Of a DNA stretch of 32,000 nt, positions 6,925 to 16,606 are shown piece by piece. The number at the start of each line of letters is the position of its first letter. Positions within the stretch are counted from its first letter, which is position 1. The DNA lies in the NCBI GenBank assembly GCA_021735045.1, contig JAIPHU010000009.1, positions 1-32,000 of the forward strand. Reading direction: 5' to 3'. Origin of the DNA: Candidatus Omnitrophota bacterium. GTDB taxonomy: Bacteria > Omnitrophota > Gorgyraeia > Duberdicusellales > 4484-171. The position numbers were made by a program, and so were the translations under genes. The notes beneath the pieces are model-generated. The model was given only the letters and a program-made list of their open reading frames with translations, was not told where the DNA came from and made no database searches.

Positions 6925-8553
6925 TTATTCTGTATCACTTTGCAAGACATTCAAAGCCTTGTTTACTTTATCTTGACGATTTTTTACGTTAATCAGCTTT
7001 GGAATAATTTTTAAAAACTTATCCACACTAGCATAACCACCTGTTAATTGTTTAACTTTATAAAACTTTTTATAAGCTTGCTGGTATTGCTTTTGCCTAT
7101 ATAGAGACACTCCCTGTGAATATAGCTTCTCCGCTGTATTTTTTTCCTGAGATTTTACCTCTTTTTTCTTTAGTTCGGTTTTTTTAAGCTCTTCTATTGC
7201 CCTTAAACTTCGAGGAATTTTTACTTTCAAATAATTTTTAGCCTTAGCGTTTCCCGGATCTAAACTAAGGATCTGTTGAAATAGATTTTTGGCTTTTTTA
7301 AACTTTTTATTTTTATAGAGTTTTTGAGCCTCTTGGTGCAAAGCCTTAACCTTTTCTTCTCTATTTATTTCTTTTTCTGCTTTTTTCTCTTCCTCTGCCA
7401 CTTTTACTCTTTCTTCTTTTTGTATCTCTTTAAACTCTTGTGGTTTCCTTATTTTTTCTTGCTGTACTACTTGAGTCAATTTTTCTTTACCCGATAAAAG
7501 CGGTTCGCCAGTACTAATAATTTTAGGAGAAACCATGATTAGAAGTTCTGTTTTTTGCTTTTCTTCTTTTGTACTTTTAAAAAGATTACCTAAAAAAGGA
7601 ATATCGCCTAAAAGCGGAACTTTTGTTATTCCATGAGAAGTTTTCTCTTTAATCAAACCGCCGATAACTACAGTTTGGCCTTCTTTTACTGTTACTTTTG
7701 TCTGAGTTACCCGAATATCTGTTTCAGGCAACTCAGGTGTTCCACTAGCACCTTCAGGAGTAACTTGAGCAATAAAACGAGTGATTTCTTTTACTTCTGG
7801 ATGAATATCTAAAGTAATTGTACGATCAGGATTTATTAAAGGAGTTACCTCTAGGGCTACCCCTTCATCAGCATATTCATATTCATAAGTATAGGTAGTA
7901 TCAGTGCCTGATTCTGTTTCTTGATCTTCCTTTTCTACTTCTGATAAATAAGGAATAGTAGTCCTTACATCTATTTTAGCCCGAAGATTGTTTTTGGTAG
8001 CAATTTTAGGGGCAGAAAGAATATCTGTATCAAGTTGAGTAGTTAAAGCTTTTAAAACAACTTCTATATTATCGTCAAAAATACCAATAGTGAAAGGATC
8101 TTGCTGGGAAGACCCTGAAATCGGTTTATAGTAAGGTTTTCGAAATGGTATTTGTTGATCTAACGAAGAATCTGCCGCTGAACCTAAAGTAGCACTACCA
8201 CCTAAATCTAACCCTCCTTCTTTCCATAATTTCCAGGTAACCCCTAAAGAATGCTCTTTATCTAAAGAAACTTCCACTACCCTTGCTTCGATAAGAATTT
8301 GTTCACTTGGATTATCAGCCATTTTTAAATACTCTTCAATCATAGCAATATTAGGAGAATGATCTATAACCAATATGGAGTTGCTTTCTGTATCAGGTAT
8401 AATTTTACCCGACTCAGAAAGAAGATTAAGAAGAGTCTCAGAAGAAACTTCTCCGGAGCCTTTTGATGAAGGCTGAGCAAAAACAAAAGGCATATTACCT
8501 AAAACAATAAAAACTGAAAGAAAAACTACACCTATTAATTTAACAAATTTCAT
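6925..8553 (-). CDS. Secretin (outer-membrane pore subunit) with C-terminal coiled-coil/TPR extension
   Basis: Signal peptide MKFVKLIGVVFLSVFIVLGNMPFVFAQ. One N-domain (NSILVIDHSPNIAMIEEYL). Secretin core ILIEARVVEV ... VPLLGDIPFLGNLFKS...ELLIMVSPKII. About 190 further aa are K/E-rich with TPR-like repeats. Confidence 0.88.
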   Translation of the reverse strand: MKFVKLIGVVFLSVFIVLGNMPFVFAQPSSKGSGEVSSETLLNLLSESGKIIPDTESNSILVIDHSPNIAMIEEYLKMADNPSEQILIEARVVEVSLDKEHSLGVTWKLWKEGGLDLGGSATLGSAADSSLDQQIPFRKPYYKPISGSSQQDPFTIGIFDDNIEVVLKALTTQLDTDILSAPKIATKNNLRAKIDVRTTIPYLSEVEKEDQETESGTDTTYTYEYEYADEGVALEVTPLINPDRTITLDIHPEVKEITRFIAQVTPEGASGTPELPETDIRVTQTKVTVKEGQTVVIGGLIKEKTSHGITKVPLLGDIPFLGNLFKSTKEEKQKTELLIMVSPKIISTGEPLLSGKEKLTQVVQQEKIRKPQEFKEIQKEERVKVAEEEKKAEKEINREEKVKALHQEAQKLYKNKKFKKAKNLFQQILSLDPGNAKAKNYLKVKIPRSLRAIEELKKTELKKKEVKSQEKNTAEKLYSQGVSLYRQKQYQQAYKKFYKVKQLTGGYASVDKFLKIIPKLINVKNRQDKVNKALNVLQSDTE

Positions 8554-8564
8554 TATTATCCTCC

Positions 8565-9452
8565 TTATTCGGATTCCTTTATCCCTTCAATTTCTTCTCT
8601 TTCTTCTTCTCTTTCTTCTCTTTGCAATTTGCGCTCTTGCCTTTCTTTTTCCAGCAATTTTGGAAATAGTTGTTTTACAGAAATATAATCTATTTTAAAT
8701 ACTCTTGTTGTTAACTTTTGGTCTATCAAATTTACAAAATTTTCCACCTGTTCAACATAGCTAGGATAATCTATGACCACCAAAGAGTTAGTTGATTTGT
8801 TAGGAATAATTTTACCATAAGAAGAAAGTAGGTCGTAAATATCGCCTCTGCTGCCTCTTGCTGCAATCAACTGAGGTGTTTGAGAGGTTGCTTGGGTTTT
8901 TTGAGTTTTAGCTGTTTGAGTTCCACCAGAGGTAGTTTTTCCTTTAGAAGTTTTGCTATCATCTTCTTCTAAAATCGAAGAAACAGTAGCATTCTTTAAA
9001 GGAATAATCTTGGTGACCAAACTTGGTTTTACGGTGATTATTTTTCCTTTTTTTTCTAAAGCTAGCCCTTTTTGTTCGACTATAATATCCAACGCTTCTT
9101 CAAGAGATACATTTGTAAGACTGGCAGTTATCTCACCTTCTACTTTTTGATCAACAATGATATTTAAATCATAATCATGAGCAACTAATCTAAAAAAATC
9201 CTGCAAAGGAACTCGCCTTAGCTCTATCGAATATTCTGGTTCTTCTTTTTCTAGGCGTTTAATCTCCATCAAAGGAGTTTGTTCGGTGATTTCTTTCTTT
9301 TTTTTAGGTACAGCTACAGAAGAAGACTTCTGCTTTTTACTTTGAGAAGTACTTCCTCCAGGTTGAGCTTGTGCCTCTGCATTTTTTTTATCTAAACCTA
9401 TAAATGTAATAAATACAAAAACGAAAGCTAAAAATAATTTTAATAATTTCAT
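8565..9452 (-). CDS. Secretin N0/N1-domain-only periplasmic protein (separate N-terminal module of the secretin)
   Basis: Own signal peptide (MKLLKLFLAFVFVFITFIG...AEAQA). STN/N0-like VPLQDFFRLVAHDYDLNIIVDQKVEGEITASLTNVSLEEALDIIVEQKGL. N1-like STNSLVVIDYPSYVEQVENFVNLID. There is no beta-barrel core. Charged E/R tail. Confidence 0.6.
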   Translation of the reverse strand: MKLLKLFLAFVFVFITFIGLDKKNAEAQAQPGGSTSQSKKQKSSSVAVPKKKKEITEQTPLMEIKRLEKEEPEYSIELRRVPLQDFFRLVAHDYDLNIIVDQKVEGEITASLTNVSLEEALDIIVEQKGLALEKKGKIITVKPSLVTKIIPLKNATVSSILEEDDSKTSKGKTTSGGTQTAKTQKTQATSQTPQLIAARGSRGDIYDLLSSYGKIIPNKSTNSLVVIDYPSYVEQVENFVNLIDQKLTTRVFKIDYISVKQLFPKLLEKERQERKLQREEREEEREEIEGIKESE

Positions 9453-11404
9453 TTACCACCCCTTTTTAATTGGGACATAATATCACCAATAACATTTTTA
9501 AACTCATATTTATCCACTTTTTTTGATCCAACTATTGCAACAGTATCTTTTATTATTTTAGCAGTTATTTTATCATTATTTTGGTTAACCCAGATAAAAT
9601 TTTCAACATCTGTTTTCTCTTCTACTGAATATTTCCCTGCTTTAATCCATTTTTTAAACACATCATAATAAAAAGCTGCATCTTCATAACTATTCCATTT
9701 AGTTAAAAAAACAATTAGTTGTCTATCACCCTTCCTTTTATATAGAGTTATTTGATCATTTTCCCATCCTAAGGCCGCATTTTTTGCCAGATCAGTATTT
9801 AATCTGGATTGAAGCGACAAAAAGATAAAATATTCACCTAAAGAGGTAGAATAGATATTATGCCATTCGTTACTTAATTTAACACCCTTAACCTCTACTG
9901 AGCCAGCTCGTTTTTTATCAGATCTTTCTATCTTTTCTCTGAAGCTATAAAGCAAAGGATGCATAATTTCTCTAGCTGTTGTAGGAGGATTTTTATAAAG
10001 CAGACTGATATCTTCCCAGCTATTATCTTGAAGCCAATTTTGGATAAAATCTGCTCCGTACCCATAAACATTATAAAAAAGATTATTATTAATTAAAGAA
10101 CTATTTTTAATTATCTTTTGTTCTATAAAATTTGTTATATCTCCTAACTCTGTAAAACTTTCGTTTTTCTTACTTAAAAGATATTCTGCTTCCACAGCTG
10201 TTGCTTCCCCTTCAACTAAACTATTAAGAGCAAACTTGTAGTCTTTGTTATATTTAGTAGATTTCGTTAATTTATTAAGATCTAATTTTTTATCCTGGAA
10301 AGCATGGACTAACTCATGAACAAGAACTATCTCCGCTACTGCCGGATCAAGGTAATCTCCAAGATATATCACTTTATCTTCTGGCTCATAGAATCCAGCT
10401 ATTAACGCAGCATCGGAACTGTTTATAACCAAATCTTGATAGTCTATTTCCTCGGGAATAAGATTAAGCCATTTAAAGACTACCCCTTCATTTTCTATTA
10501 ATTCTTTTGTATATTGGTTTTTTATCTGTTCTATCATAACGTTGCGCATTATGGAACGATTTACAAATTTTATTTTCAAGGCTTTTATATCTTCAAGACT
10601 CCATCCCCTTAACCTAGCAACTGCCTCTTTAAGTTCATTAACCTTATCCTTTAATTCTTTCTTTTCTTTTCTTACTTGTTGAGTTATATATTGAGGAGTA
10701 TTAAAATTAAACTTTTTATCATAATCTTTATATTCTGTTCGATGTAATATTTTCTCATACCCCATTGTCCCTTCAATTTCTTGAAATACAGGTAAAAAAT
10801 TATCTCGATTTATCCAAACCTTAACTTCTAAATCTGCAATTAACATTTTTTGCTTAAACATTGCCGGATCTAACTTATAAGAAATCAGATAACAAATCTT
10901 ACCTTTTTTCTTTTTTTGCCCTAAATACTCTAGACTGTCTTCAACCCATCTATGTTGATTAATATAAAATAAACTTTCGATTAAAGAATACTCTAATCTC
11001 TCTTGATCTTTTTTATCACTAATAGATAAAGATTTATTTTCCCATCTTCTTTCTTTTGAATTCCAAACAAAGGGTACTCCTCTGATAACATACTGTTGAA
11101 CCCAAGACGAACTAGAATAATCTAGGTTCGGTAACAAAGACGAAACGCTTGCTCGTCCTGTAACTTTTAAATTATCAAAATTTTTTATTAGATTTGTGGT
11201 AGAGATCTTCCAATGAAAAGAACGTGATTGAGCCCAATAATTAACAAGTGCCTTTACCGAATCTATTTGATAGAAGGAGTTGTTCATGGTTTGAATTAAT
11301 CGTAAAGGTGAAATTTTACCCTCATAATATATATTTTGCCCATAAGATAAGGGTAAAAATAAAATTAAAAGTATAATAAATAAAATGCTTAATTTATTTC
11401 TCAT
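9449..11404 (-). CDS. Secreted HExxH zincin-like protein (putative metallopeptidase)
   Basis: Signal peptide MRNKLSILFIILLILFLPLSYG. HELVH at nt 10304-10318, followed 30 residues later by LVEGEATAVEAEY (a gluzincin-type third-ligand candidate). ATGA overlap with the next gene at 9449-9452. Confidence 0.6.
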   Translation of the reverse strand: MRNKLSILFIILLILFLPLSYGQNIYYEGKISPLRLIQTMNNSFYQIDSVKALVNYWAQSRSFHWKISTTNLIKNFDNLKVTGRASVSSLLPNLDYSSSSWVQQYVIRGVPFVWNSKERRWENKSLSISDKKDQERLEYSLIESLFYINQHRWVEDSLEYLGQKKKKGKICYLISYKLDPAMFKQKMLIADLEVKVWINRDNFLPVFQEIEGTMGYEKILHRTEYKDYDKKFNFNTPQYITQQVRKEKKELKDKVNELKEAVARLRGWSLEDIKALKIKFVNRSIMRNVMIEQIKNQYTKELIENEGVVFKWLNLIPEEIDYQDLVINSSDAALIAGFYEPEDKVIYLGDYLDPAVAEIVLVHELVHAFQDKKLDLNKLTKSTKYNKDYKFALNSLVEGEATAVEAEYLLSKKNESFTELGDITNFIEQKIIKNSSLINNNLFYNVYGYGADFIQNWLQDNSWEDISLLYKNPPTTAREIMHPLLYSFREKIERSDKKRAGSVEVKGVKLSNEWHNIYSTSLGEYFIFLSLQSRLNTDLAKNAALGWENDQITLYKRKGDRQLIVFLTKWNSYEDAAFYYDVFKKWIKAGKYSVEEKTDVENFIWVNQNNDKITAKIIKDTVAIVGSKKVDKYEFKNVIGDIMSQLKRGGK

Positions 11405-11918
11405 AATAAATATTATTTAATCTTAAAACATATTCTTTACCTAAAAAATCTTTAAGAACTATAGATTCTGGTTCTATTTTCAATATTTTGTAGTTACCTA
11501 TTATATCATTCTCTTTAACTACTCTCCCGTCAACTATAGCATAAGACTTTTTTGAAGAATAAAATATAGAAGAAAGAACAAATTCTCTATACCGTTGGAC
11601 CTCTTCTCGTTTTAATTTTTTCAACTCTTCCCGTTCTTTATAAGTAAGAAAAGGATTAAATTTTTTTCTTTTGCCGCTCTGCTTATCTCCTAATTTTTTT
11701 TCTTCTGAAAATTTATGGCTTGAATACAAAGAACTTTCAGCCGAAAATCCATCCTCTCTTTGTAATCCATCCTGATATCCTTGTTCTCCCTGATTTTGCT
11801 GATCAGCCCTTAAGTTTTGCCATTTATTTTTTATAAAAGGAAATAAAGCAATTAATAAAGCCCCCACTATTACTGCCACCCCTATAATACCGACTAACTT
11901 ATTTTCTTTCCAATTCAT
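11394..11918 (-). CDS. Membrane-anchored protein with PilP/GspC-like C-terminal beta domain
   Basis: N-terminal TM helix (LVGIIGVAVIVGALLIALFPF) and a low-complexity linker. The C-terminal YAIVDGRVVKENDIIGNYKILKIEPESIVLKD...YVLRL resembles secretin-binding HR/PilP domains. 11-nt overlap with the downstream gene. Confidence 0.45.
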   Translation of the reverse strand: MNWKENKLVGIIGVAVIVGALLIALFPFIKNKWQNLRADQQNQGEQGYQDGLQREDGFSAESSLYSSHKFSEEKKLGDKQSGKRKKFNPFLTYKEREELKKLKREEVQRYREFVLSSIFYSSKKSYAIVDGRVVKENDIIGNYKILKIEPESIVLKDFLGKEYVLRLNNIYYEK

Positions 11919-11937
11919 AACTTTTATTTACCTATAT

Positions 11938-12126
11938 CTATTCTTCCTGTCCAAGAATTTTTTTTAACTCTCTTACTCTTTTTAAACTATATCGTCTCCA
12001 GTGATTTATAGGATTTCGGCTCGATTTAGGAAAAATTCCTTTTTTTTCATAGCGCTTAATGGTTTCCTTAGAAATTCCTAACTCCTTAGATAGTTCTTGA
12101 ATTGTATAATATTTATTTTTTGCCAT
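11938..12126 (-). CDS. Small MerR/excisionase-type (HTH_17-like) DNA-binding protein
   Basis: 62 aa. YYTIQELSKELGISKETIKRYEKKGIFP... is a typical helix-turn-helix. It is the first gene after a strong promoter-like element. Confidence 0.7.
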   Translation of the reverse strand: MAKNKYYTIQELSKELGISKETIKRYEKKGIFPKSSRNPINHWRRYSLKRVRELKKILGQEE

Positions 12127-12199
12127 GTTACACCCTGCTACTATAGCTTACTATATTCTGACCCCCCTTAGGGTATCTTTCTCTATCTATTTACTAGTA

Positions 12200-12229
12200 A
12201 TTATATCTTGGATACTATAACAGCGTCAA
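12200..12229 (-). promoter_or_regulatory. Candidate sigma70-type promoter of the HTH-led secretion operon
   Basis: The minus strand reads TTGACG-18 nt-TATAAT, about 70 nt upstream of the HTH ATG. Confidence 0.5.
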
Positions 12230-12258
12230 GTTAAATTTTTGAAAAAAAATCACCTTTT

Positions 12259-12301
12259 TACAATATATAGGGGGGATAAAAATTGCATACTATATATTGT
12301 A
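12259..12301 (-). terminator. 12-bp perfect inverted repeat downstream of the 1021-aa ORF (terminator-like)
   Basis: tacaatatatag (12259-12270) pairs with ctatatattgta (12290-12301). On the minus strand a T8 run follows about 10 nt after the stem. The stem begins 18 nt after the stop codon at 12319-12321. Confidence 0.4.
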
Positions 12302-12318
12302 GATAACCAAGGAAATCA

Positions 12319-15300
12319 TTAAAATGGAAGGGTTTTATTGTTTGCTTGGCCAAAGATTTGGCCTAAATTATCGATAGTTTCGATTTTGATAATATTGAAG
12401 GTAAAACCTTGGAAAGTTTGCAGATCAAAAGGAAGTTGAAGCTGAGTTGAGTTGATACCTTGGCCTTGCACGTCTAGATTTATCTGAGCCGGAGTCAGAT
12501 CAATTCCACCTTTATTATCAATCCCACCGGGAGCCTTTTCCGGGGAAGGATTAGAACTACCCCCGGCGGATTGATTTTCATCAAATAATAATAACTGTTG
12601 TTCTATTTTATTGCTACTCTCTTCATTTTCTGGTATCTGTTCTTTAACCTTGTATGATTCCGTTTCATCGACTATTCTTTCTGCCATATCTTTTGATAAC
12701 CACATCCACGTATTATCAATAGCATCTTCTTCTGAAAGAAATTCCAAAGTAGAAGAAGCCGCAACCCTAAAACCAAGTTGTTCAAAGTATTCTCTGGGAA
12801 TATTTTTAGCTTCTCTTTCTGCTTCAGCAGGATGCACCATAATAATACCTTTACTATCCTCTGCAATAGTTTGATCATTATTACTCAATTCTATAGCTTT
12901 AGTTAAAATTACCTTACCGAAACCTTGGCTCTTACGATATTCTTGGGAAACTTCAATAAAATCTCCTATATAAAATTCTTTAGCACCTTCATTTTCATCT
13001 TTCATACTTAACCCTTTGTGAAAATAGCCCAAACCTAAAATTTCACCTGTATCTAAAGCTTCCAACATCACTAAATAACCATTAGGATAAGCGTTAATAG
13101 CTTGATTTTTCCATCGCCAACTTTTAAAAAACCTTTCTTCTCCTCTTTGCTTGGCTTGCTCAAACCATTTATTTATTGTTTCTTCCATATTGTTACGATC
13201 ATTAATAACTTCTACAGCATATTCAACTCCACTGTTTGTTTTATATATATCGTTATCTTCCTTTACCTCTGACTCTCCCCCTACCCTATTTTTAATCAAA
13301 GTTCTTCTCTCGGCTTGATTGAATTCTGCCTCATGTTTAATTAATAGTTTTCTTATATTGTTTCGTTTTTCCGAAGAAGAAACATCGATAATTAATCTCC
13401 CCTCTTTGTCTTTAGAAAATAATGGTTTAAAACTCTTAATTGAATCTTTACCAAAACCTGTAACAGCTAATTTAGTCAACTTTCCTATAAAACCAAGAGG
13501 TTTTGACTTAAATTCGTAATTGTCTAAATTAGAAAAATAAGATTCAAAAACAGGATTGGGCTTATCTACTATACTACCATTAGGCCTTTTTTTATACCGC
13601 CACAAGAGAGGGGAAGTTGCTTCAATAGAAATTATACCTTTCATTTGAGGCTCTGTTTCTATTCTATTCAATACTTCTTCTATCGCTATTAAGGAATCTT
13701 TGAATATGGCCTGATAAGGATTATTTTGCTTTTTTAACTCGTTAAGATTAGCTAAAACATGTAAAGTTATTTTTTTGCCTTCTTTGTAAGCAGTCATATA
13801 TTTAGTTGTTTTTAAAAAATTAAAAAGTTTTGTCTGCAACCAAGCATTTAAAGACCAAGCAATCCTTGCACCTAAACTCATTCCTACCAAATATCCCAGA
13901 ACACTTAAAGAAGAACTAATGTACATTCCAGAAATAAACCCTAGGCTAAATGCTCCGCCTAACGTCAAAGAAGTACCTATTAGCAATTCCGGAATTGTTT
14001 TTTTAAAGTATGTAGTTAAATCCTCTAAAAAACTCCCGCCACTACCTTCTCCTGTTCCGGAGGTGCCAGGACCGGTTCCGGAGCCAGTATCTGCGCCAGT
14101 GCCAGTGCCGCCTTCGCGCCCACCTTGAACTTCACCAGTAACACCAGTTCCAGCTAATCCTTCTGCTACCGGGTTAATCTTTACGCCTACACCTAAGGAG
14201 CTGCCTGCAACTGGCAGGCCTGTAGCTGGCATAACAGGGGTAGTTTGTAAATTTGAAGCTAAAGCAGTACCATCAAAGCCGCCGGAATAATATTGCCTGC
14301 GGATTTGGCGCCTTAAGTGAGGGTCGTAGTCGGTTTTAATAAAATCATAAACTCCCTTCTTGTAGGCTTTCACATAACGGGCATAGATTTTATCCTTTGC
14401 TTGTTTATCCTCAAGTTCTACACCTTTGATTTTATTTTTGTCCAGATAAATTTCAGATAAAATAGTTTTCTTTAACTTCTGCTTAAACCAAATCGCTAGA
14501 ATCAAAGCCGAATAAACTTGACGCAGAGAGGCAAAATTTTTACCTTCGTTAATTTCTTTGGCAATTGCCGGAAGAATTATTTCTTTAGTTACTTTAGAAG
14601 AGATGCCGCTTAACTCTTGGGTATCTTTTTTATCTAATTGATCGGTTCCAATATCTTTATTGTCTAAGTTTTTATCCAGGGCAAGATAATCTTGCTCCAG
14701 CATCACTTTCAGCTTCGCTTTGGTCACATAGCCGGTATTGCCATTTTCATAAACTTGAGCCTCAGCCGGAACGATCCAAATTTTATTAAAAGTATTAATC
14801 GGAATATTGGTAGTTCCGTATTTTTGATAAGCTTTTTTGTAAACTTTATCCCAAAACTTCTTCCCTGACGGGCTTTCCGGATAAGTAAGTGAAGAAAGGA
14901 GTTGTTTTAGAATATAGTCTTGGCCGAGTAACTCTCTGCCTAAATCAGTTTGGCCTAAACCAGAAGGGATAATCCTGTCTTTTTCGTAAGGAGATAAATT
15001 AACCCAAAGGTCATCTTCGGGCACAGTTAAAGAAGCCAGAAAATAACGAATTAATTCTTCTGATTCTTTTTTTAGTTCTTCTTTTGATAAATCACCCCTG
15101 TCACCGGTATCAACTATAAAATTAAATTCAAAAGGATTAGCCGGATTAATCCGCAGGCCGCGGACCATCGGCGGCACAAAATTGGGAGTTGGCTCAAGCA
15201 ATTGGTCAGGAGCAGGTAAGGTGGATGCATAACTTTTCGGTTGATTTCTGCTTACAAAAGGAATCAGGGCGGATAATAAAAAAGCGCTGATTAGAAAAAT

Positions 15301-15384
15301 TATCAGGCACTTAAAAGAAAGGTGGGCTTTCTTTTTGGTTAAAAATAAAATAAAATTCGATTGATTTTCGTTCCTTCCCCGCAT
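12319..15384 (-). CDS. Large multi-domain membrane protein with C-terminal GNAT acetyltransferase-like domain
   Basis: Domain order: N-terminal anchor, a domain of about 320 aa (LPAPDQLLEPTPNFVPPMVRGLRINPANPFEFNFIVDTGD...), a Gly/Thr/Ser linker, two hydrophobic helices, a region of unknown function, and a GNAT motif A (QEYRKSQGFGKVILTKAIE at nt 12892-12945). A distinct C-terminal module follows (GGIDLTPAQINLDVQGQG...). AAGGGA SD. Confidence 0.8.
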   Translation of the reverse strand: MRGRNENQSNFILFLTKKKAHLSFKCLIIFLISAFLLSALIPFVSRNQPKSYASTLPAPDQLLEPTPNFVPPMVRGLRINPANPFEFNFIVDTGDRGDLSKEELKKESEELIRYFLASLTVPEDDLWVNLSPYEKDRIIPSGLGQTDLGRELLGQDYILKQLLSSLTYPESPSGKKFWDKVYKKAYQKYGTTNIPINTFNKIWIVPAEAQVYENGNTGYVTKAKLKVMLEQDYLALDKNLDNKDIGTDQLDKKDTQELSGISSKVTKEIILPAIAKEINEGKNFASLRQVYSALILAIWFKQKLKKTILSEIYLDKNKIKGVELEDKQAKDKIYARYVKAYKKGVYDFIKTDYDPHLRRQIRRQYYSGGFDGTALASNLQTTPVMPATGLPVAGSSLGVGVKINPVAEGLAGTGVTGEVQGGREGGTGTGADTGSGTGPGTSGTGEGSGGSFLEDLTTYFKKTIPELLIGTSLTLGGAFSLGFISGMYISSSLSVLGYLVGMSLGARIAWSLNAWLQTKLFNFLKTTKYMTAYKEGKKITLHVLANLNELKKQNNPYQAIFKDSLIAIEEVLNRIETEPQMKGIISIEATSPLLWRYKKRPNGSIVDKPNPVFESYFSNLDNYEFKSKPLGFIGKLTKLAVTGFGKDSIKSFKPLFSKDKEGRLIIDVSSSEKRNNIRKLLIKHEAEFNQAERRTLIKNRVGGESEVKEDNDIYKTNSGVEYAVEVINDRNNMEETINKWFEQAKQRGEERFFKSWRWKNQAINAYPNGYLVMLEALDTGEILGLGYFHKGLSMKDENEGAKEFYIGDFIEVSQEYRKSQGFGKVILTKAIELSNNDQTIAEDSKGIIMVHPAEAEREAKNIPREYFEQLGFRVAASSTLEFLSEEDAIDNTWMWLSKDMAERIVDETESYKVKEQIPENEESSNKIEQQLLLFDENQSAGGSSNPSPEKAPGGIDNKGGIDLTPAQINLDVQGQGINSTQLQLPFDLQTFQGFTFNIIKIETIDNLGQIFGQANNKTLPF

Positions 15385-15547
15385 ATCATCCCTTTATAAG
15401 GTATATATAATAAACAACTAGGGAAAATATAACATATTTAGGGGTTGTAAATCTGCTAATTTAGCAGCTTTTGGTGGAATTTTGAAAACGCTTCCAAGCA
15501 TTCAAGAAACGAAACTCTTTCGCACTAGTATAATTTTTTTATGTATA

Positions 15548-15568
15548 TGGAGAGGTCTAACCTCTCCA
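15548..15568 (-). terminator. 9-bp stem-loop downstream of ruvB (terminator-like, no U-tract)
   Basis: tggagaggt-cta-acctctcca, 18 nt after the ruvB stop. Confidence 0.35.
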
Positions 15569-15586
15569 ATCTTCAAATTGGGATTG

Positions 15587-16606
15587 TTAGCCAGTTTGGA
15601 GGTGTTGGTGAGACTTTTTGGTAGCAATTCGGCCCCGGGGGCTGCGGGTAACAAAGCCTTTGGTAAGTAGGTATGGTTCAACTACATCCTCAAGAGTTTG
15701 ACGGTCTTCGCCTAAAGAGGCAGCAATGGCATCAATTCCGGCCGGGCCGCCTTGATAGATATTTATAAGTGCAGACAAATACTTTCTGTCAAGATCATCA
15801 AAACCTTGACCATCTATACCAACTTTATCTAAAGCACTTTTTGTTACCTCTAAATTAATTTTTCCATCTCCTTCAACTTGGGCATAATCTCTAATCCGTT
15901 TCAGCAAACGATTTGATAAACGCGGCGCACCTCGAGACCGGCTAGCAATCTCAAGACAGCTATCTTTATCAATCGGAATATCCAATAACTTTGCGCTTCG
16001 AGAAACAACTGTAGCTAGCTCATCAACCGGATAAAAATCAAAATCAAAAAATAAACCAAACCTTCCCCGCAAAGGTGCACTTAAAAGGCCTTTTTTTGTG
16101 GTTGCGCCGATTAAGGTAAACGGTTGTAGGTTAAACTTTACACTTTTGGCATAAGGCCCTTTATCAATTATAAAATCAATCTGGAAATTTTCCATAGCCG
16201 GATACAGAAACTCCTCAACCACCTTTGAAACCCGGTGAATTTCATCAATAAATAGCACATCGCCTTTTTCTAAATTAGTAAGAATTCCTACCAAATCTCC
16301 AGCTCGTTCAATCGCTGGCCCGCTAGTTGAAGTAAGTTTTGCTTTCATCTCTTTTGTTATACAATATGCCAGGGAAGTCTTTCCCAGCCCAGGGGGCCCA
16401 GAAAGTAAAAGATGTTCGATAGGTTCTTCTCTTTTTTTTGCAGCTTTAATTGCAACCCGCAAAGCTGATACTGTATTTTGCTGACCCGTAAACTCATCAA
16501 GGGTTTTTGGCCGCAGGGAAAGGTTTACAATTTGTTCTTCTTCGTTTTCTCCTAGATAATCAACAAATCGTTCTTCATTCATAATTGAAATTAGTTCTTG
16601 GCTCAT
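15587..16606 (-). CDS. ruvB: Holliday junction branch-migration helicase RuvB
   Basis: GPPGLGKTSLA Walker A and FIDEIHR Walker B. Typical RuvB C-terminal winged-helix region. Typical length of 339 aa. Confidence 0.95.
   Translation of the reverse strand: MSQELISIMNEERFVDYLGENEEEQIVNLSLRPKTLDEFTGQQNTVSALRVAIKAAKKREEPIEHLLLSGPPGLGKTSLAYCITKEMKAKLTSTSGPAIERAGDLVGILTNLEKGDVLFIDEIHRVSKVVEEFLYPAMENFQIDFIIDKGPYAKSVKFNLQPFTLIGATTKKGLLSAPLRGRFGLFFDFDFYPVDELATVVSRSAKLLDIPIDKDSCLEIASRSRGAPRLSNRLLKRIRDYAQVEGDGKINLEVTKSALDKVGIDGQGFDDLDRKYLSALINIYQGGPAGIDAIAASLGEDRQTLEDVVEPYLLTKGFVTRSPRGRIATKKSHQHLQTG

Follow-up and report, generated by a model that had tools for sequence, protein, structure and literature searches.

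The question raised by this locus is why a single polypeptide should combine a domain of the GNAT type, enzymes that depend on acetyl-CoA, with an N terminus that points out of the cytoplasm. The protein is encoded in the window, by which we mean the whole 32,000-nucleotide stretch of DNA analyzed here, and an earlier note on the same DNA had concluded that either its topology or its function must be unusual. Our data indicate that this puzzle is real and also general: in most members of the family to which the protein belongs, enzymes of a cytoplasmic type follow a signal peptide with no intervening transmembrane (TM) segment. We favor, with a probability of about 0.5 that is a compromise between our figures for anatomy and for mechanism, the overall reading that these proteins are carriers of exported enzymes.

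All six segments that had been listed from the letters alone are present in the translation, and the description of a mosaic holds, with signal peptide, N-domain, linker, cargo modules, and C-module all lying in one reading frame; the strand, which had not been given, is minus. The features are as follows.

12319..15384, minus strand: whole open reading frame (ORF), uninterrupted, 1021 amino acids, stop codon within the span
15226..15384, minus strand: probable Sec signal peptide (residues 1-53), with the classical basic n-region and an h-region at approximately 26-44
14269..15225, minus strand: family N-domain (residues 54-372), ending in invariant Y365, G368, and G369
14008..14268, minus strand: Gly/Thr/Ser-rich low-complexity linker (residues 373-459), from composition, mostly with pLDDT below 50
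13354..14007, minus strand: first cargo module (residues 460-677), homologous to the whole of a stand-alone 254-residue membrane protein, P0128, from residue 5 of the latter
13849..13986, minus strand: putative helical hairpin (residues 467-512, as 467-487 and 493-512), moderately hydrophobic and Gly/Ser-rich
12652..13227, minus strand: divergent putative GNAT-fold acyltransferase domain (residues 720-911), from a profile of relatives
12532..12651, minus strand: acidic/Ser-rich linker (residues 912-951), from composition, with low pLDDT
12349..12531, minus strand: family C-module (residues 952-1012), GGIDL, a beta-strand, and then I-x-GF-x-P/F-x-I-I-x-I

Paralogue matches reach an E value of 1e-147 in a search of protein clusters, which places the ORF far above chance, and an identical protein is found on NCBI contig JAIPHE010000012.1 (GCA_021735365.1) and on a Logan contig. 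Gaps of approximately 200 bp separate the gene from its neighbors on either side. The promoter and the terminator-like repeat previously ascribed to it did not stand out from background: a scan returned 13 promoter-like sites, compared with 10.8 ± 3.9 in shuffled sequences, and 4 terminator-like sites, compared with 3.1 ± 1.8, and none of the latter falls on the gene's strand in the 3' gap (12127-12318).

We are highly confident that the protein belongs to a very large modular family, restricted to Omnitrophota, in which a signal peptide, an N-domain of approximately 320 residues (the head), a low-complexity linker, an interchangeable cargo, and a GGIDL tail of approximately 60 residues follow one another in this order. 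The family is previously undescribed. At least 3160 protein clusters match the query at an E value of 1e-3 or lower, the top matches covering about 35% of it, namely, the N-domain, and at least 587 genomic loci were found in species-representative genomes, several per genome. Among the best 79 of these loci, 56 are labeled Omnitrophota or Omnitrophica (including Ca. Aceula), 22 "uncultured Planctomycetales/Planctomycetia," and 1 "bacterium"; tandem copies occur in 17 of the 79. Members are mostly 0.8 to 2.8 kaa long, and their cargo is usually an intact enzyme or signaling domain, such as enolase, PGM, PPDK, kinases, and methyltransferases. Across the 37 complete members, we counted 34 Pfam families, none of them common to all; each of the 25 that were listed occurs in a single member only, and the precomputed Pfam annotation of the cluster matches has a similar spread.

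The head accounts for the relationship to more than 100 paralogues, which are 45 to 60% identical to the query over this region only and whose alignments contain 31 to 37 invariant columns. The query has all of the family positions WVNL(S)P, DY.LK, FNK.W, RQ, and Y..GG, the invariant residues being W127, V128, N129, L130, D156, Y157, F199, N200, K201, W203, R288, Q289, Y365, G368, and G369; the patterned stretches noted earlier are PPMVRGLRINPANPFEFNFIVDTGD (residues 71-95), DLWVNLSPYEKDRIIP (residues 125-140), and KIWIVPAEAQVYE (residues 201-213). AlphaFold2 (AF2) predicts a mixed alpha/beta domain with three beta-hairpins and long helices (pLDDT of approximately 90 in the full-length model; pTM of 0.81 for the domain alone). 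That the domain had no known relatives was already suspected, and profile, sequence, and fold searches agree, with no match in Pfam, NCBIfam, PADLOC, PDB sequences, PDB folds, or BFVD. The PADLOC models gave no family at an E value of 0.1 or lower for the query as a whole and hence no sign of membership in an anti-phage defense system. ClyA-family alpha-pore-forming toxins (NheA 4k1p, MakA/B/E, and SmhA/B) ranked first in both Foldseek searches of the PDB, with E values of 0.05 to 2 and probabilities of at most 0.11. They resemble the N-domain in the order of secondary structure, with long helices and a beta-hairpin, but its hairpin at 200-231 is of amphipathic rather than hydrophobic character, and with a best E value of 0.052, TM scores of 0.10 to 0.13, and an rmsd of approximately 22 Å, against thresholds of E < 1e-3 and TM > 0.5, we rejected a shared fold.

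The tail is the second constant element. We defined it as a GGIDL beta-module approximately 50 to 140 residues from the stop codon; in the query, GGIDL occupies residues 959-963, 62 residues before the end, within a module that begins with PGGIDNKGGIDL (residues 952-963) and closes with FQGFTFNIIKIETIDNLGQIFG (residues 991-1012). G959, G960, I961, and D962 are found in at least 90% of family members. The module matches more than 40 paralogue C termini by BLAST, has a pLDDT of 75 to 94 in the full-length model, and is an amphipathic variant (GFTFNIIKIETI) without a hydrophobic tail. Searches of Pfam, NCBIfam, PADLOC, PDB sequences, and PDB and BFVD folds returned no relatives of it, and the query had no Pfam or NCBIfam match to sorting or anchor tails (the type IX secretion system [T9SS] Por_Secre_tail, PEP-CTERM and other CTERM, LPXTG, or dockerin), nor did the tail region of eight paralogues with hydrophobic tails match a sorting or anchor domain. 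The mention in the earlier note of GGID-containing C-terminal modules in uncultured lineages proved accurate, since the conserved module closes 54 of 63 complete family ORFs in an HMM search. The same search returned no complete ORF with a C-module that lacks the N-domain: all 10 headless cases are truncated at a locus end or represent the latter part of a gene that has been split in two. Head similarity and tail similarity are correlated among members (Spearman coefficient of 0.46), and the cargo is alike in only 23 of 1953 member pairs.

Between these two modules, the query carries what appears from homology to be a complete two-helix membrane module of the P0128 type, followed by a divergent GNAT. 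The preceding linker is not conserved across family alignments, and the Gly/Thr/Ser character attributed to residues 385-452 is borne out by composition (23 Gly, 9 Thr, and 6 Ser among 68 residues). Residues 460-677 comprise a basic stretch (FKK), a hydrophobic hairpin, and a helical module (KLFNFLKTTKYMTAYKEGKKITLHV...), and match P0122 with an E value of 9.6e-14 and P0128 with an E value of 2e-8 in an exhaustive phmmer search. The local alignment with P0128 runs on through the hairpin, which matches the two TM segments of that protein in position. The "TM hairpin" of the earlier note is a genuine hydrophobic stretch, but it belongs to the captured module, whose beginning it forms, and does not stand alone as part of the linker. 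Residues 467-506 form an uncharged stretch of 40 residues with a Kyte-Doolittle (KD) peak of 1.58, the second half, in which Arg507 falls, reaching 1.36 by hand calculation, and it is plausible that 467-512 holds two TM helices.

The GNAT assignment, made earlier for residues 735-885, is upheld only by way of a profile built from relatives; by itself, the query matches no Pfam family at an E value of 1 or lower over the whole protein or of 0.1 or lower over residues 696-945. An exhaustive phmmer search of 1.84 billion representatives recovered 25 relatives; the query matches 24 other proteins with E values of 3.6e-15 to 4.5e-4, and in 22 of these the match covers the GNAT region. Among 20 sequences, the query and 19 relatives, 17 match PF00583 (best E value of 8.7e-9) and 14 match PF13508, and their joint profile picks out 32 sequences from the PDB, almost all of which carry the name of an acetyltransferase or are recognized as having the GNAT fold, the best being 1tiq (E value of 4.4e-4). 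Membership in the GNAT superfamily is thereby established by transitive homology, as a sequence-based assignment. The subfamily profile, which we likened to the known GNAT acyltransferases PaiA (1tiq) and Naa50 (3tfy), aligns with the beta4-alpha3 CoA-binding core (E-V-x-x-x-Y-R-G-x-G-L-G...) of PaiA and of 9ilr. Unlike those enzymes, the subfamily has its own N-terminal helix region (W-F...R-x-F...W) and an H-P-A-E motif, and the query lacks a single-sequence Pfam match and contains one inserted residue in its motif A (QEYRKSQGFGKVILTKAIE, residues 814-832, positions 12889-12945), with YRKSQGFG in place of the YR-GQGLG of relatives. Compared with the consensus of the pyrophosphate-binding loop, R/Q-x-x-G-x-G/A, relatives have R-G-Q-G-L-G, and the R-K-S-Q-G-F-G of the query can be read as K-x-x-G-x-G. 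The AF2 model of residues 750-954 has a pLDDT below 50.

The N terminus had been taken for a membrane anchor at residues 1-45. The hydrophobic stretch is there (KD mean over 19 residues of 2.76), but rather than a permanent anchor, residues 1-53 probably constitute a cleavable Sec signal peptide, judging from hydropathy and the AxA/Q pattern. Cleavage is predicted at S-Y-A/S (KSYA/S) after A53, three residues ahead of L56-P57-A58-P59. A hydrophobic N terminus is present in 91 of 116 family members, and in 89 of 111, x-x-A-Q lies at most 22 residues upstream of the conserved LPxP motif. The stand-alone relatives of the query GNAT likewise begin with signal-peptide-like leaders, an argument for regarding a location outside the cytoplasm as a trait of this GNAT subfamily. 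Together with the cytoplasm-type cargo behind signal peptides elsewhere in the family, these leaders make an unusual function, not an unusual topology, the better answer to the puzzle.

With odds that we put slightly below even, these features may reflect a mechanism of export and handling. The polypeptide would leave the cytoplasm via Sec, and a common pathway would use head and tail as handles, shared by all members, for the sorting, anchoring, or delivery of varied cargoes. If so, the GNAT would act outside the producer's cytoplasm, either on the envelope or within a host or prey cell to which the producer is attached; secreted GNAT effectors, mycobacterial Eis among them, are a precedent. 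More tentatively, head and tail could be the two halves of a phylum-specific handling system, unrelated to known modules for secretion, sorting, or toxin delivery, with which ultra-small, host-dependent Omnitrophota export entire housekeeping-type enzymes (glycolytic enzymes, kinases, and acyl- and methyltransferases) to the surface or to host or prey; the two halves might dock to one another, or both to the same receptor. Several considerations speak against export and handling. No partner machine was found among the neighbors of the 79 related loci described below, and activity of the GNAT is presumptive, in view of the insertion in motif A and the low pLDDT of this part. Cargo that depends on acetyl-CoA, ATP, SAM, or PEP should be useless in the periplasm, and hydrophobic or signal-peptide-like segments behind the head, counted in 13 to 33 of approximately 116 members, could act as stop-transfer sequences that keep the cargo cytoplasmic, as 467-487 could here.

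The latter point underlies the alternative that survives best, although we consider it unlikely: an enzyme tethered to the inner membrane, with the head as a periplasmic anchor or sensor, 467-487 as a single stop-transfer segment, and the weaker second half of the hairpin, with Arg507, in the cytoplasm along with the helical module, GNAT, and tail; the family would then consist of membrane-tethered cytoplasmic enzymes and signaling proteins. The acetyl-CoA that GNATs need is present in the cytoplasm, 467-487 is more hydrophobic than 493-512, basic residues lie on both flanks of the stretch, and many cargo domains (HATPase_c, GGDEF, REC, Pkinase, and CheR) are typical outputs. An inner-membrane anchor with cytoplasmic domains has also been offered, in the available text of a preprint, for the TM-only fraction, nearly half, of a catalogue of long Omnitrophota proteins (bioRxiv 10.64898/2026.06.07.730766). 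However, in only 23 of 116 members (40 at a lax cutoff) is the head separated from the cargo by a hydrophobic segment, a strong one at the stricter cutoff, so that the exported head and most kinase, enolase, and methyltransferase cargoes would share one side of the membrane. Under tethering, moreover, the compartment of the conserved tail would vary from member to member; the alignment of the hairpin with both TM segments of P0128 favors two spans over one, and the leaders on stand-alone GNAT relatives look cleavable.

Less probable again is a self-assembling extracellular scaffold, in which the tail docks into the head in cis or in trans, in the manner of dockerin and cohesin or of donor-strand complementation, and dozens of paralogues polymerize into a surface coat or multienzyme assembly. 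The strict coupling and covariation of head and tail would fit, as would a tail that is a small beta-module, confidently modeled despite long disordered flanks. Residues 365-388 (YYSGGFDG...) have a pLDDT of 78 to 88 in the head-only model and below 50 in the full-length model with the GGIDL strand, a loss of order compatible with competition for one site, although different alignments alone may account for the difference. In most heads, the invariant SGG is followed by a hydrophobic residue (39% Phe) and in some by Asp (19%), which faintly recalls GG-I-D-L. Against this idea, the query has no Pfam match to dockerin or cohesin.

A tie to the neighboring secretion machine, as the earlier note proposed, would make the protein a dedicated substrate or effector of that type II-like system, which we regard as improbable. 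The gene was correctly placed directly upstream of the secretion locus, on the same strand: a MerR gene 0.2 kb downstream is followed by ORFs of 174 and 651 residues, the N-terminal part of a secretin, a secretin/TPR gene, a GspE-type ATPase, and three pseudopilins. Substrates of type II secretion systems (T2SS) need a Sec signal peptide, which we counted in favor of this reading. Giant genes of Omnitrophota are also reported, in the available text of a preprint, to lie close to a conserved T2SS locus (bioRxiv 10.1101/2023.11.21.568195). Within 8 kb on either side of the best 79 related loci, however, a secretin homologue was found at 1 and a T2SS (GspE-type) ATPase at 2, which we judge to be near chance for dozens of scattered paralogues, and no neighbor gene recurs. 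Moreover, the MerR gene has a strong promoter-like site that lies between the query gene and the secretion genes, and at a syntenic locus (L001) the upstream housekeeping genes are retained together with a family member that exceeds 3037 residues and bears different cargo. The adjacent type II/type IV pilus-like locus is a possible exit route without being specifically tied to this gene.

That the proteins have no common function and are accidents of fusion and decay, or of assembly and gene calling, is scarcely credible: frameshifts or masked stretches do interrupt some of the family ORFs in MAGs, and internal segments of a signal-peptide-like kind resemble remnants of precursor genes that have fused, but the same protein occurs in two independent assemblies, thousands of intact members share a head that is 45 to 60% identical with invariant residues, the tail stays at the extreme C terminus in the proportion given above, and cargo domains are well preserved (e.g., Enolase_C at 5e-67).

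Returning to exported carriers, one parallel in outline is with MARTX toxins, in which conserved N- and C-terminal regions surround a modular, strain-variable array of effectors that act in the cytoplasm of another cell. Both have conserved ends and a variable, enzymatic middle. MARTX toxins have long glycine-rich repeat arms, rely for export on a type I system and no Sec signal, and free their effectors by a cysteine protease domain; for the query, we found neither such repeats nor a type I system nor the protease, nor any similarity in sequence or fold. LXG, Rhs, and CdiA proteins and T9SS cargo with C-terminal sorting domains resemble the family in having a conserved handle, a swappable payload, and multiple paralogues, some in tandem, whereas the family conserves both ends and varies the middle. 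Its payloads, unlike those of polymorphic toxins, are largely housekeeping-type enzymes, no immunity-like small gene recurs downstream in the 79 loci, and the query matches no LXG, Rhs, or Por_Secre_tail profile.

Two uncatalogued modules thus surround almost any enzyme, behind an export signal, in thousands of proteins, dozens to a genome, now annotated as "hypothetical" or named for their cargo alone, and even if the mechanism is mundane membrane tethering, head and tail merit Pfam and NCBIfam models. Omnitrophota are widespread, uncultured, and ultra-small and are thought to live off other cells. If head and tail are handles for sorting or delivery, they would define an effector or surface repertoire of the whole phylum, which a simple sequence rule (head plus tail) could list, and would explain signal peptides on "cytoplasmic" enzymes while connecting the family to giant multienzyme proteins. 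The available part of one report describes the detection of RNA of an Omnitrophota predator within prey cells (PMC13153191). For long and giant proteins of the phylum, the available text of two preprints gives signal peptides and a "multi-enzyme metabolic" content (bioRxiv 10.64898/2026.06.07.730766; bioRxiv 10.1101/2023.11.21.568195) and, in term searches, yielded no description of the shared cassette of N-domain and GGIDL tail. Compared by these partial descriptions, the two groups share the phylum, N-terminal signal peptides, and such cargo as PGM, PPDK_N, NUDIX, radical SAM, HATPase_c, GGDEF, HAD, REC, and methyltransferases; the long and giant proteins measure 10 kaa or more, well above the usual family range, although the syntenic relative of the query gene, at more than 3037 residues, is a further point of likeness.

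Our analysis places the query, the 1021-aa mosaic protein, in a new, uncatalogued protein family, whose members are bracketed by a conserved N-terminal domain (here called the head; residues 54 to 372 of the query) and a C-terminal GGIDL module (the tail; residues 952 to 1012) and swap the part between the two (the cargo). The translated window gives an ORF of 1021 codons without interruption at positions 12319-15384 on the minus strand, and every motif that the earlier note had quoted is found in it within the residue range assigned there. The Gly/Thr/Ser linker proposed for residues 385 to 452 is real (G23, T9, and S6 of 68 residues), as is the hydrophobic N-terminal stretch (Kyte-Doolittle 19-residue mean, 2.76). 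An identical protein is also encoded on NCBI contig JAIPHE010000012.1 and in an independent Logan assembly; in the window itself no further family copy was found, the query being a single copy. Tests for membership in known families all failed for the query, save for GNAT via a profile. Scans with the whole protein by itself against Pfam, NCBIfam, PADLOC, and PDB sequences returned nothing or matches to the low-complexity linker, and the head profile matched nothing among PDB sequences except coiled-coil and poly-Q noise from linker columns.

Searching 5.8 billion proteins yielded at least 3160 matches at E ≤ 1e-3, a lower bound counted among the 8000 candidates scored. The best 120 are 43 to 60% identical to the query and cover just 30 to 44% of it, in the N-terminal part; nearly all of the named matches are from Candidatus Omnitrophota/Omnitrophica, and one is labeled Auribacterota. 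Head alignments hold 31 to 37 invariant columns, including W127-V-N-L130, D156-Y157, F199-N-K201, W203, R288-Q289, Y365, and G368-G369. When one genome per species was scanned, at least 600 pattern matches were obtained, at least 587 of which were confirmed. By the taxon labels of their MAGs, the best 79 loci comprise 56 from Omnitrophota/Omnitrophica (including Ca. Aceula), 22 from "uncultured Planctomycetales/Planctomycetia," and one from a "bacterium." A genome can contribute several loci (SMAG_U7936 has five among these 79), and two or three tandem copies occur in 17 of the 79, including the following loci (L numbers), in which the cargo differs in every copy and, in L057 and L064, copies are in some cases 5 to 90 nt apart:
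L057:2961-13759, head-to-tail tandem array
L064:7962-15621, head-to-tail tandem array
L078:3055-10376, head-to-tail tandem array
L026:3140-12668, head-to-tail tandem array

At the other end of the protein, the family consensus reads GGIDLNP..L.L...G.G.....P.........I.GF.P.I..I.P...LP.LLG, and the query tail is an amphipathic variant, GFTFNIIKIETI, which it has in common with the homologs P0002, P0003, P0007, P0011, and P0063. A tail HMM matched 64 of the 656 ORFs in the 79 loci, 54 of them carrying the head; each of the 10 others either is cut off where the locus begins or represents the latter half of a gene that a frameshift or masked stretch has broken in two. Of the 63 family ORFs that reach their stop codon within the locus, 54 end in the tail; about half of the nine that lack it either are visibly interrupted by masked stretches or make up the front half of a gene whose tail is in the next ORF. 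Pairs of members with similar heads tend to have similar tails (Spearman 0.46), the region between the modules being similar in just 23 of 1953 pairs. Judged by these ORFs, the tail is strictly coupled to the head. The tail profile, run against the 5.8-billion-protein index, had 19 short proteins among the matches listed; stand-alone tails are nevertheless not established, because the two checked on long contigs are assembly artifacts, one a contig-end fragment and one a stretch of a low-coverage contig with a frameshift. A dockerin or EF-hand identity for GGIDNKGGIDL was set aside for want of profile support.

Between head and tail, the cargo changes from member to member. Among 37 complete members drawn from different species, Pfam identified 34 families; the 25 listed were seen in one member apiece, and no family lies over the head or tail. 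These cargoes include enolase, Glu/Leu dehydrogenase, RmlD, alanine dehydrogenase, HEAT, GNAT, phosphoglucomutase, epimerase, PPDK_N, PP2C, methyltransferases, CofD, GT2, UDPGP, and GT5, and the domains are well kept (e.g., Enolase_C at 5e-67). Precomputed Pfam annotation of the head matches adds protein kinases, HATPase_c, REC, GGDEF, NUDIX, DnaJ, FHA, peptidases M48, M3, and M20, radical SAM, AMP-binding, PGI, and others; DnaJ is cargo in P0010, P0044, and P0071. At L001:7970-17113 (JBAWWL010000009.1, Omnitrophota isolate ELA036), a member that exceeds 3037 aa and continues beyond the locus is syntenic with the query gene, after rimP-nusA-infB-trpS-scpA-ruvB, and resembles the query in the head alone (53% identity). 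The cargo in orthologous slots can therefore differ greatly in length.

The cargo of the query consists of a membrane module and a GNAT-type domain. Its first part, residues 460 to 677, aligns with nearly all of the stand-alone 254-aa protein P0128, starting at P0128 residue 5 and taking in the basic N terminus and both hydrophobic segments; the fragment P0122 aligns with the same residues. What the earlier note called a TM hairpin thus opens a captured membrane-protein module. A word-index search with residues 520 to 945 (12550-13827, minus strand) returned zero matches, the query's own protein included, whereas an exhaustive search returned the self-match and 24 relatives; null results of the word-index search are not to be read as absence. 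In the exhaustive search, the second part, at about residues 720 to 911, proved to be a domain common to 22 other proteins. The query by itself matches no Pfam family here, and the GNAT assignment stands through the profile of its relatives: in an alignment of the query with 19 of them, 17 of the 20 sequences match PF00583 (best, 8.7e-9), and searching the PDB with the subfamily profile gives 32 sequences, almost all of which are named as acetyltransferases or are known to have the GNAT fold; the best is PaiA (1tiq) at E 4.4e-4, and the alignments span the beta4-alpha3 CoA-binding core. Motif A of the query has a one-residue insertion (YRKSQGFG versus YR-GQGLG in relatives). Four GNAT relatives are head-bearing family members (P0057, P0132, P0133, and P0137). 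At least seven stand-alone ones (P0123, P0130, P0131, P0135, P0138, P0141, and P0142) share a conserved signal-peptide-like leader, M-x-N-F-K-K-x-x-N-L-K-I-I-S followed by a hydrophobic core and L-R-V-P, which could be a lineage-specific leader type. The N terminus of P0128, MFLNFKSK, resembles this leader.

Export and topology we infer from hydropathy and sequence pattern. The N terminus is hydrophobic in 91 of 116 members, its flanks are basic, and x-x-A-Q occurs no more than 22 residues before the conserved LPxP at the start of the mature head in 89 of 111; this would be the classical Sec/SPase I pattern, with a putative site in the query at S-Y-A53/S. Just 23 of 116 members (40 with a lax cutoff) have a hydrophobic segment within the 260 residues that follow the head, so that in most of them the cargo should cross the membrane behind the head. 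Signal-peptide-like segments are 12-fold enriched directly after the head (0.56 versus 0.048 per 1000 residues). They lie 20 to 150 residues behind it in P0020, P0029, P0035, P0036, P0043, P0047, P0075, P0080, P0094, P0100, and P0106 and combine a basic stretch with a hydrophobic core and AxA; some also have a lipobox (FSSGC, LGLCTSSGC) or a twin-arginine motif (SRRRFLG; weak TIGR01409 match in P0036). These segments suggest that entire precursor genes were captured behind the head. In the query, residues 467 to 506 form an uncharged, moderately hydrophobic stretch of 40 residues (KD peak, 1.58). A two-helix hairpin there would put the GNAT domain on the head's side of the membrane, and a single stop-transfer at 467 to 487 would put it in the cytoplasm.

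We read these data as a family in which the whole chain would be exported through Sec, with head and tail in a common handling role, be it sorting, anchoring, or delivery. Such a role would account for two modules being so strongly conserved in proteins that are otherwise unrelated, for the strict pairing of head and tail, and for the leader-bearing relatives of the query GNAT domain. The main rival is membrane tethering with the cargo held in the cytoplasm, which matches the cofactor needs of the cargo and suits the subset of members with a TM segment after the head, but misfits the majority that have none. A scaffold in which head and tail dock onto each other is attractive as a second rival and draws on indirect hints. 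A cytoplasmic head on an N-out signal anchor, neat as it is for the internal signal peptides, was rejected because of the strongly basic N-terminal flanks. In architecture, the nearest analogs of the family are MARTX toxins and polymorphic effectors. On a conservative view, it is a variant of "conserved handles plus swappable payload"; a new protein-handling system is a tentative reading, which we put at about 0.3.

An AF2 model of the full protein, built with 60 relatives, is confident in the head (pLDDT about 90) and tail (75 to 94) and in little else; the head-only model has a pTM of 0.81. Foldseek gave no match to the full-length model in the PDB and nothing significant for the head-only model in the PDB or BFVD. 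The best PDB match was NheA (E 0.05, TM 0.10, rmsd 22 Å). ClyA-family toxins and V-ATPase subunit a recurred among the nonsignificant matches, and homology to the ClyA family was rejected at a TM of about 0.1. The best BFVD match was A0A6N1NXY0_2, a J domain-containing protein of Tupanvirus soda lake (E 0.067, probability 0.30, TMq 0.27, 364 columns, 16% identity). In the head-only model, residues 365 to 388 (14221-14292), after YYSGG, form ordered strands that pack against the head (pLDDT 78 to 88); they are disordered in the full-length model (pLDDT <50), where the GGIDL strand of the tail is present. The tail strand may compete for this site on the head, or the change may be an effect of the different alignments; it is only a lead.

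Gaps of about 200 bp separate the query gene from its neighbors. The promoter and terminator-like repeat of its own that the earlier note had given it do not rise above controls: positions 11900-15700 contain 13 promoter-like sites versus 10.8 ± 3.9 in shuffled sequence and 4 terminator-like sites versus 3.1 ± 1.8, none of the latter on the coding strand of the 3' gap. On the 5' side lie ruvB, scpA, trpS, infB, nusA, and rimP. On the 3' side and the same strand follow a MerR-type gene, a 174-aa ORF, a 651-aa ORF, an ORF for a secretin N terminus, a secretin/TPR ORF, a GspE-type ATPase gene, three pseudopilin genes, and an ABC ATPase gene. The specific link to this secretion locus that had been proposed fails, because a secretin homolog lies within 8 kb of family members in just 1 of the 79 loci and a GspE-type ATPase in 2. 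Clustering of the 656 ORFs in these loci showed no conserved partner gene; a response regulator is the commonest neighbor (11 loci), and housekeeping genes come next. A trans-acting dependence of the family on one machine per genome is possible. Altogether, what the earlier note had observed was confirmed, and its interpretation was supported in part.

No paper was found that contains the motif strings. Two preprints describe long or giant Omnitrophota proteins that bear signal peptides, have "multi-enzyme metabolic" content, and lie near T2SS or pilus genes (bioRxiv 10.1101/2023.11.21.568195; bioRxiv 10.64898/2026.06.07.730766), and term searches of both and of a Nature Microbiology survey of Omnitrophota found no mention of a shared head and tail. 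The RNA of an Omnitrophota predator is reported within prey cells (PMC13153191), which makes macromolecule transfer to prey conceivable.

Four ORFs of the secretion locus deserve separate mention:
11394-11918, minus strand, 174-aa ORF with a weak T2SSB-like match
9449-11404, minus strand, 651-aa ORF with weak matches only, DUF6782/Peptidase_M78-like and metallopeptidase-like (DUF8575 in the precomputed table)
8565-9452, minus strand, first secretin ORF, 295 aa, with STN/Secretin_N/N0
6925-8553, minus strand, second secretin ORF, 542 aa, with Secretin_N, Secretin, and C-terminal TPR repeats

The 174-aa and 651-aa ORFs may be uncharacterized components of the secretion locus. The secretin, in two adjacent ORFs (6925-9452, minus strand), is either truly split or frameshifted. 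The 651-aa and 174-aa ORFs, which separate the MerR gene from the secretin genes, share 11 nt.
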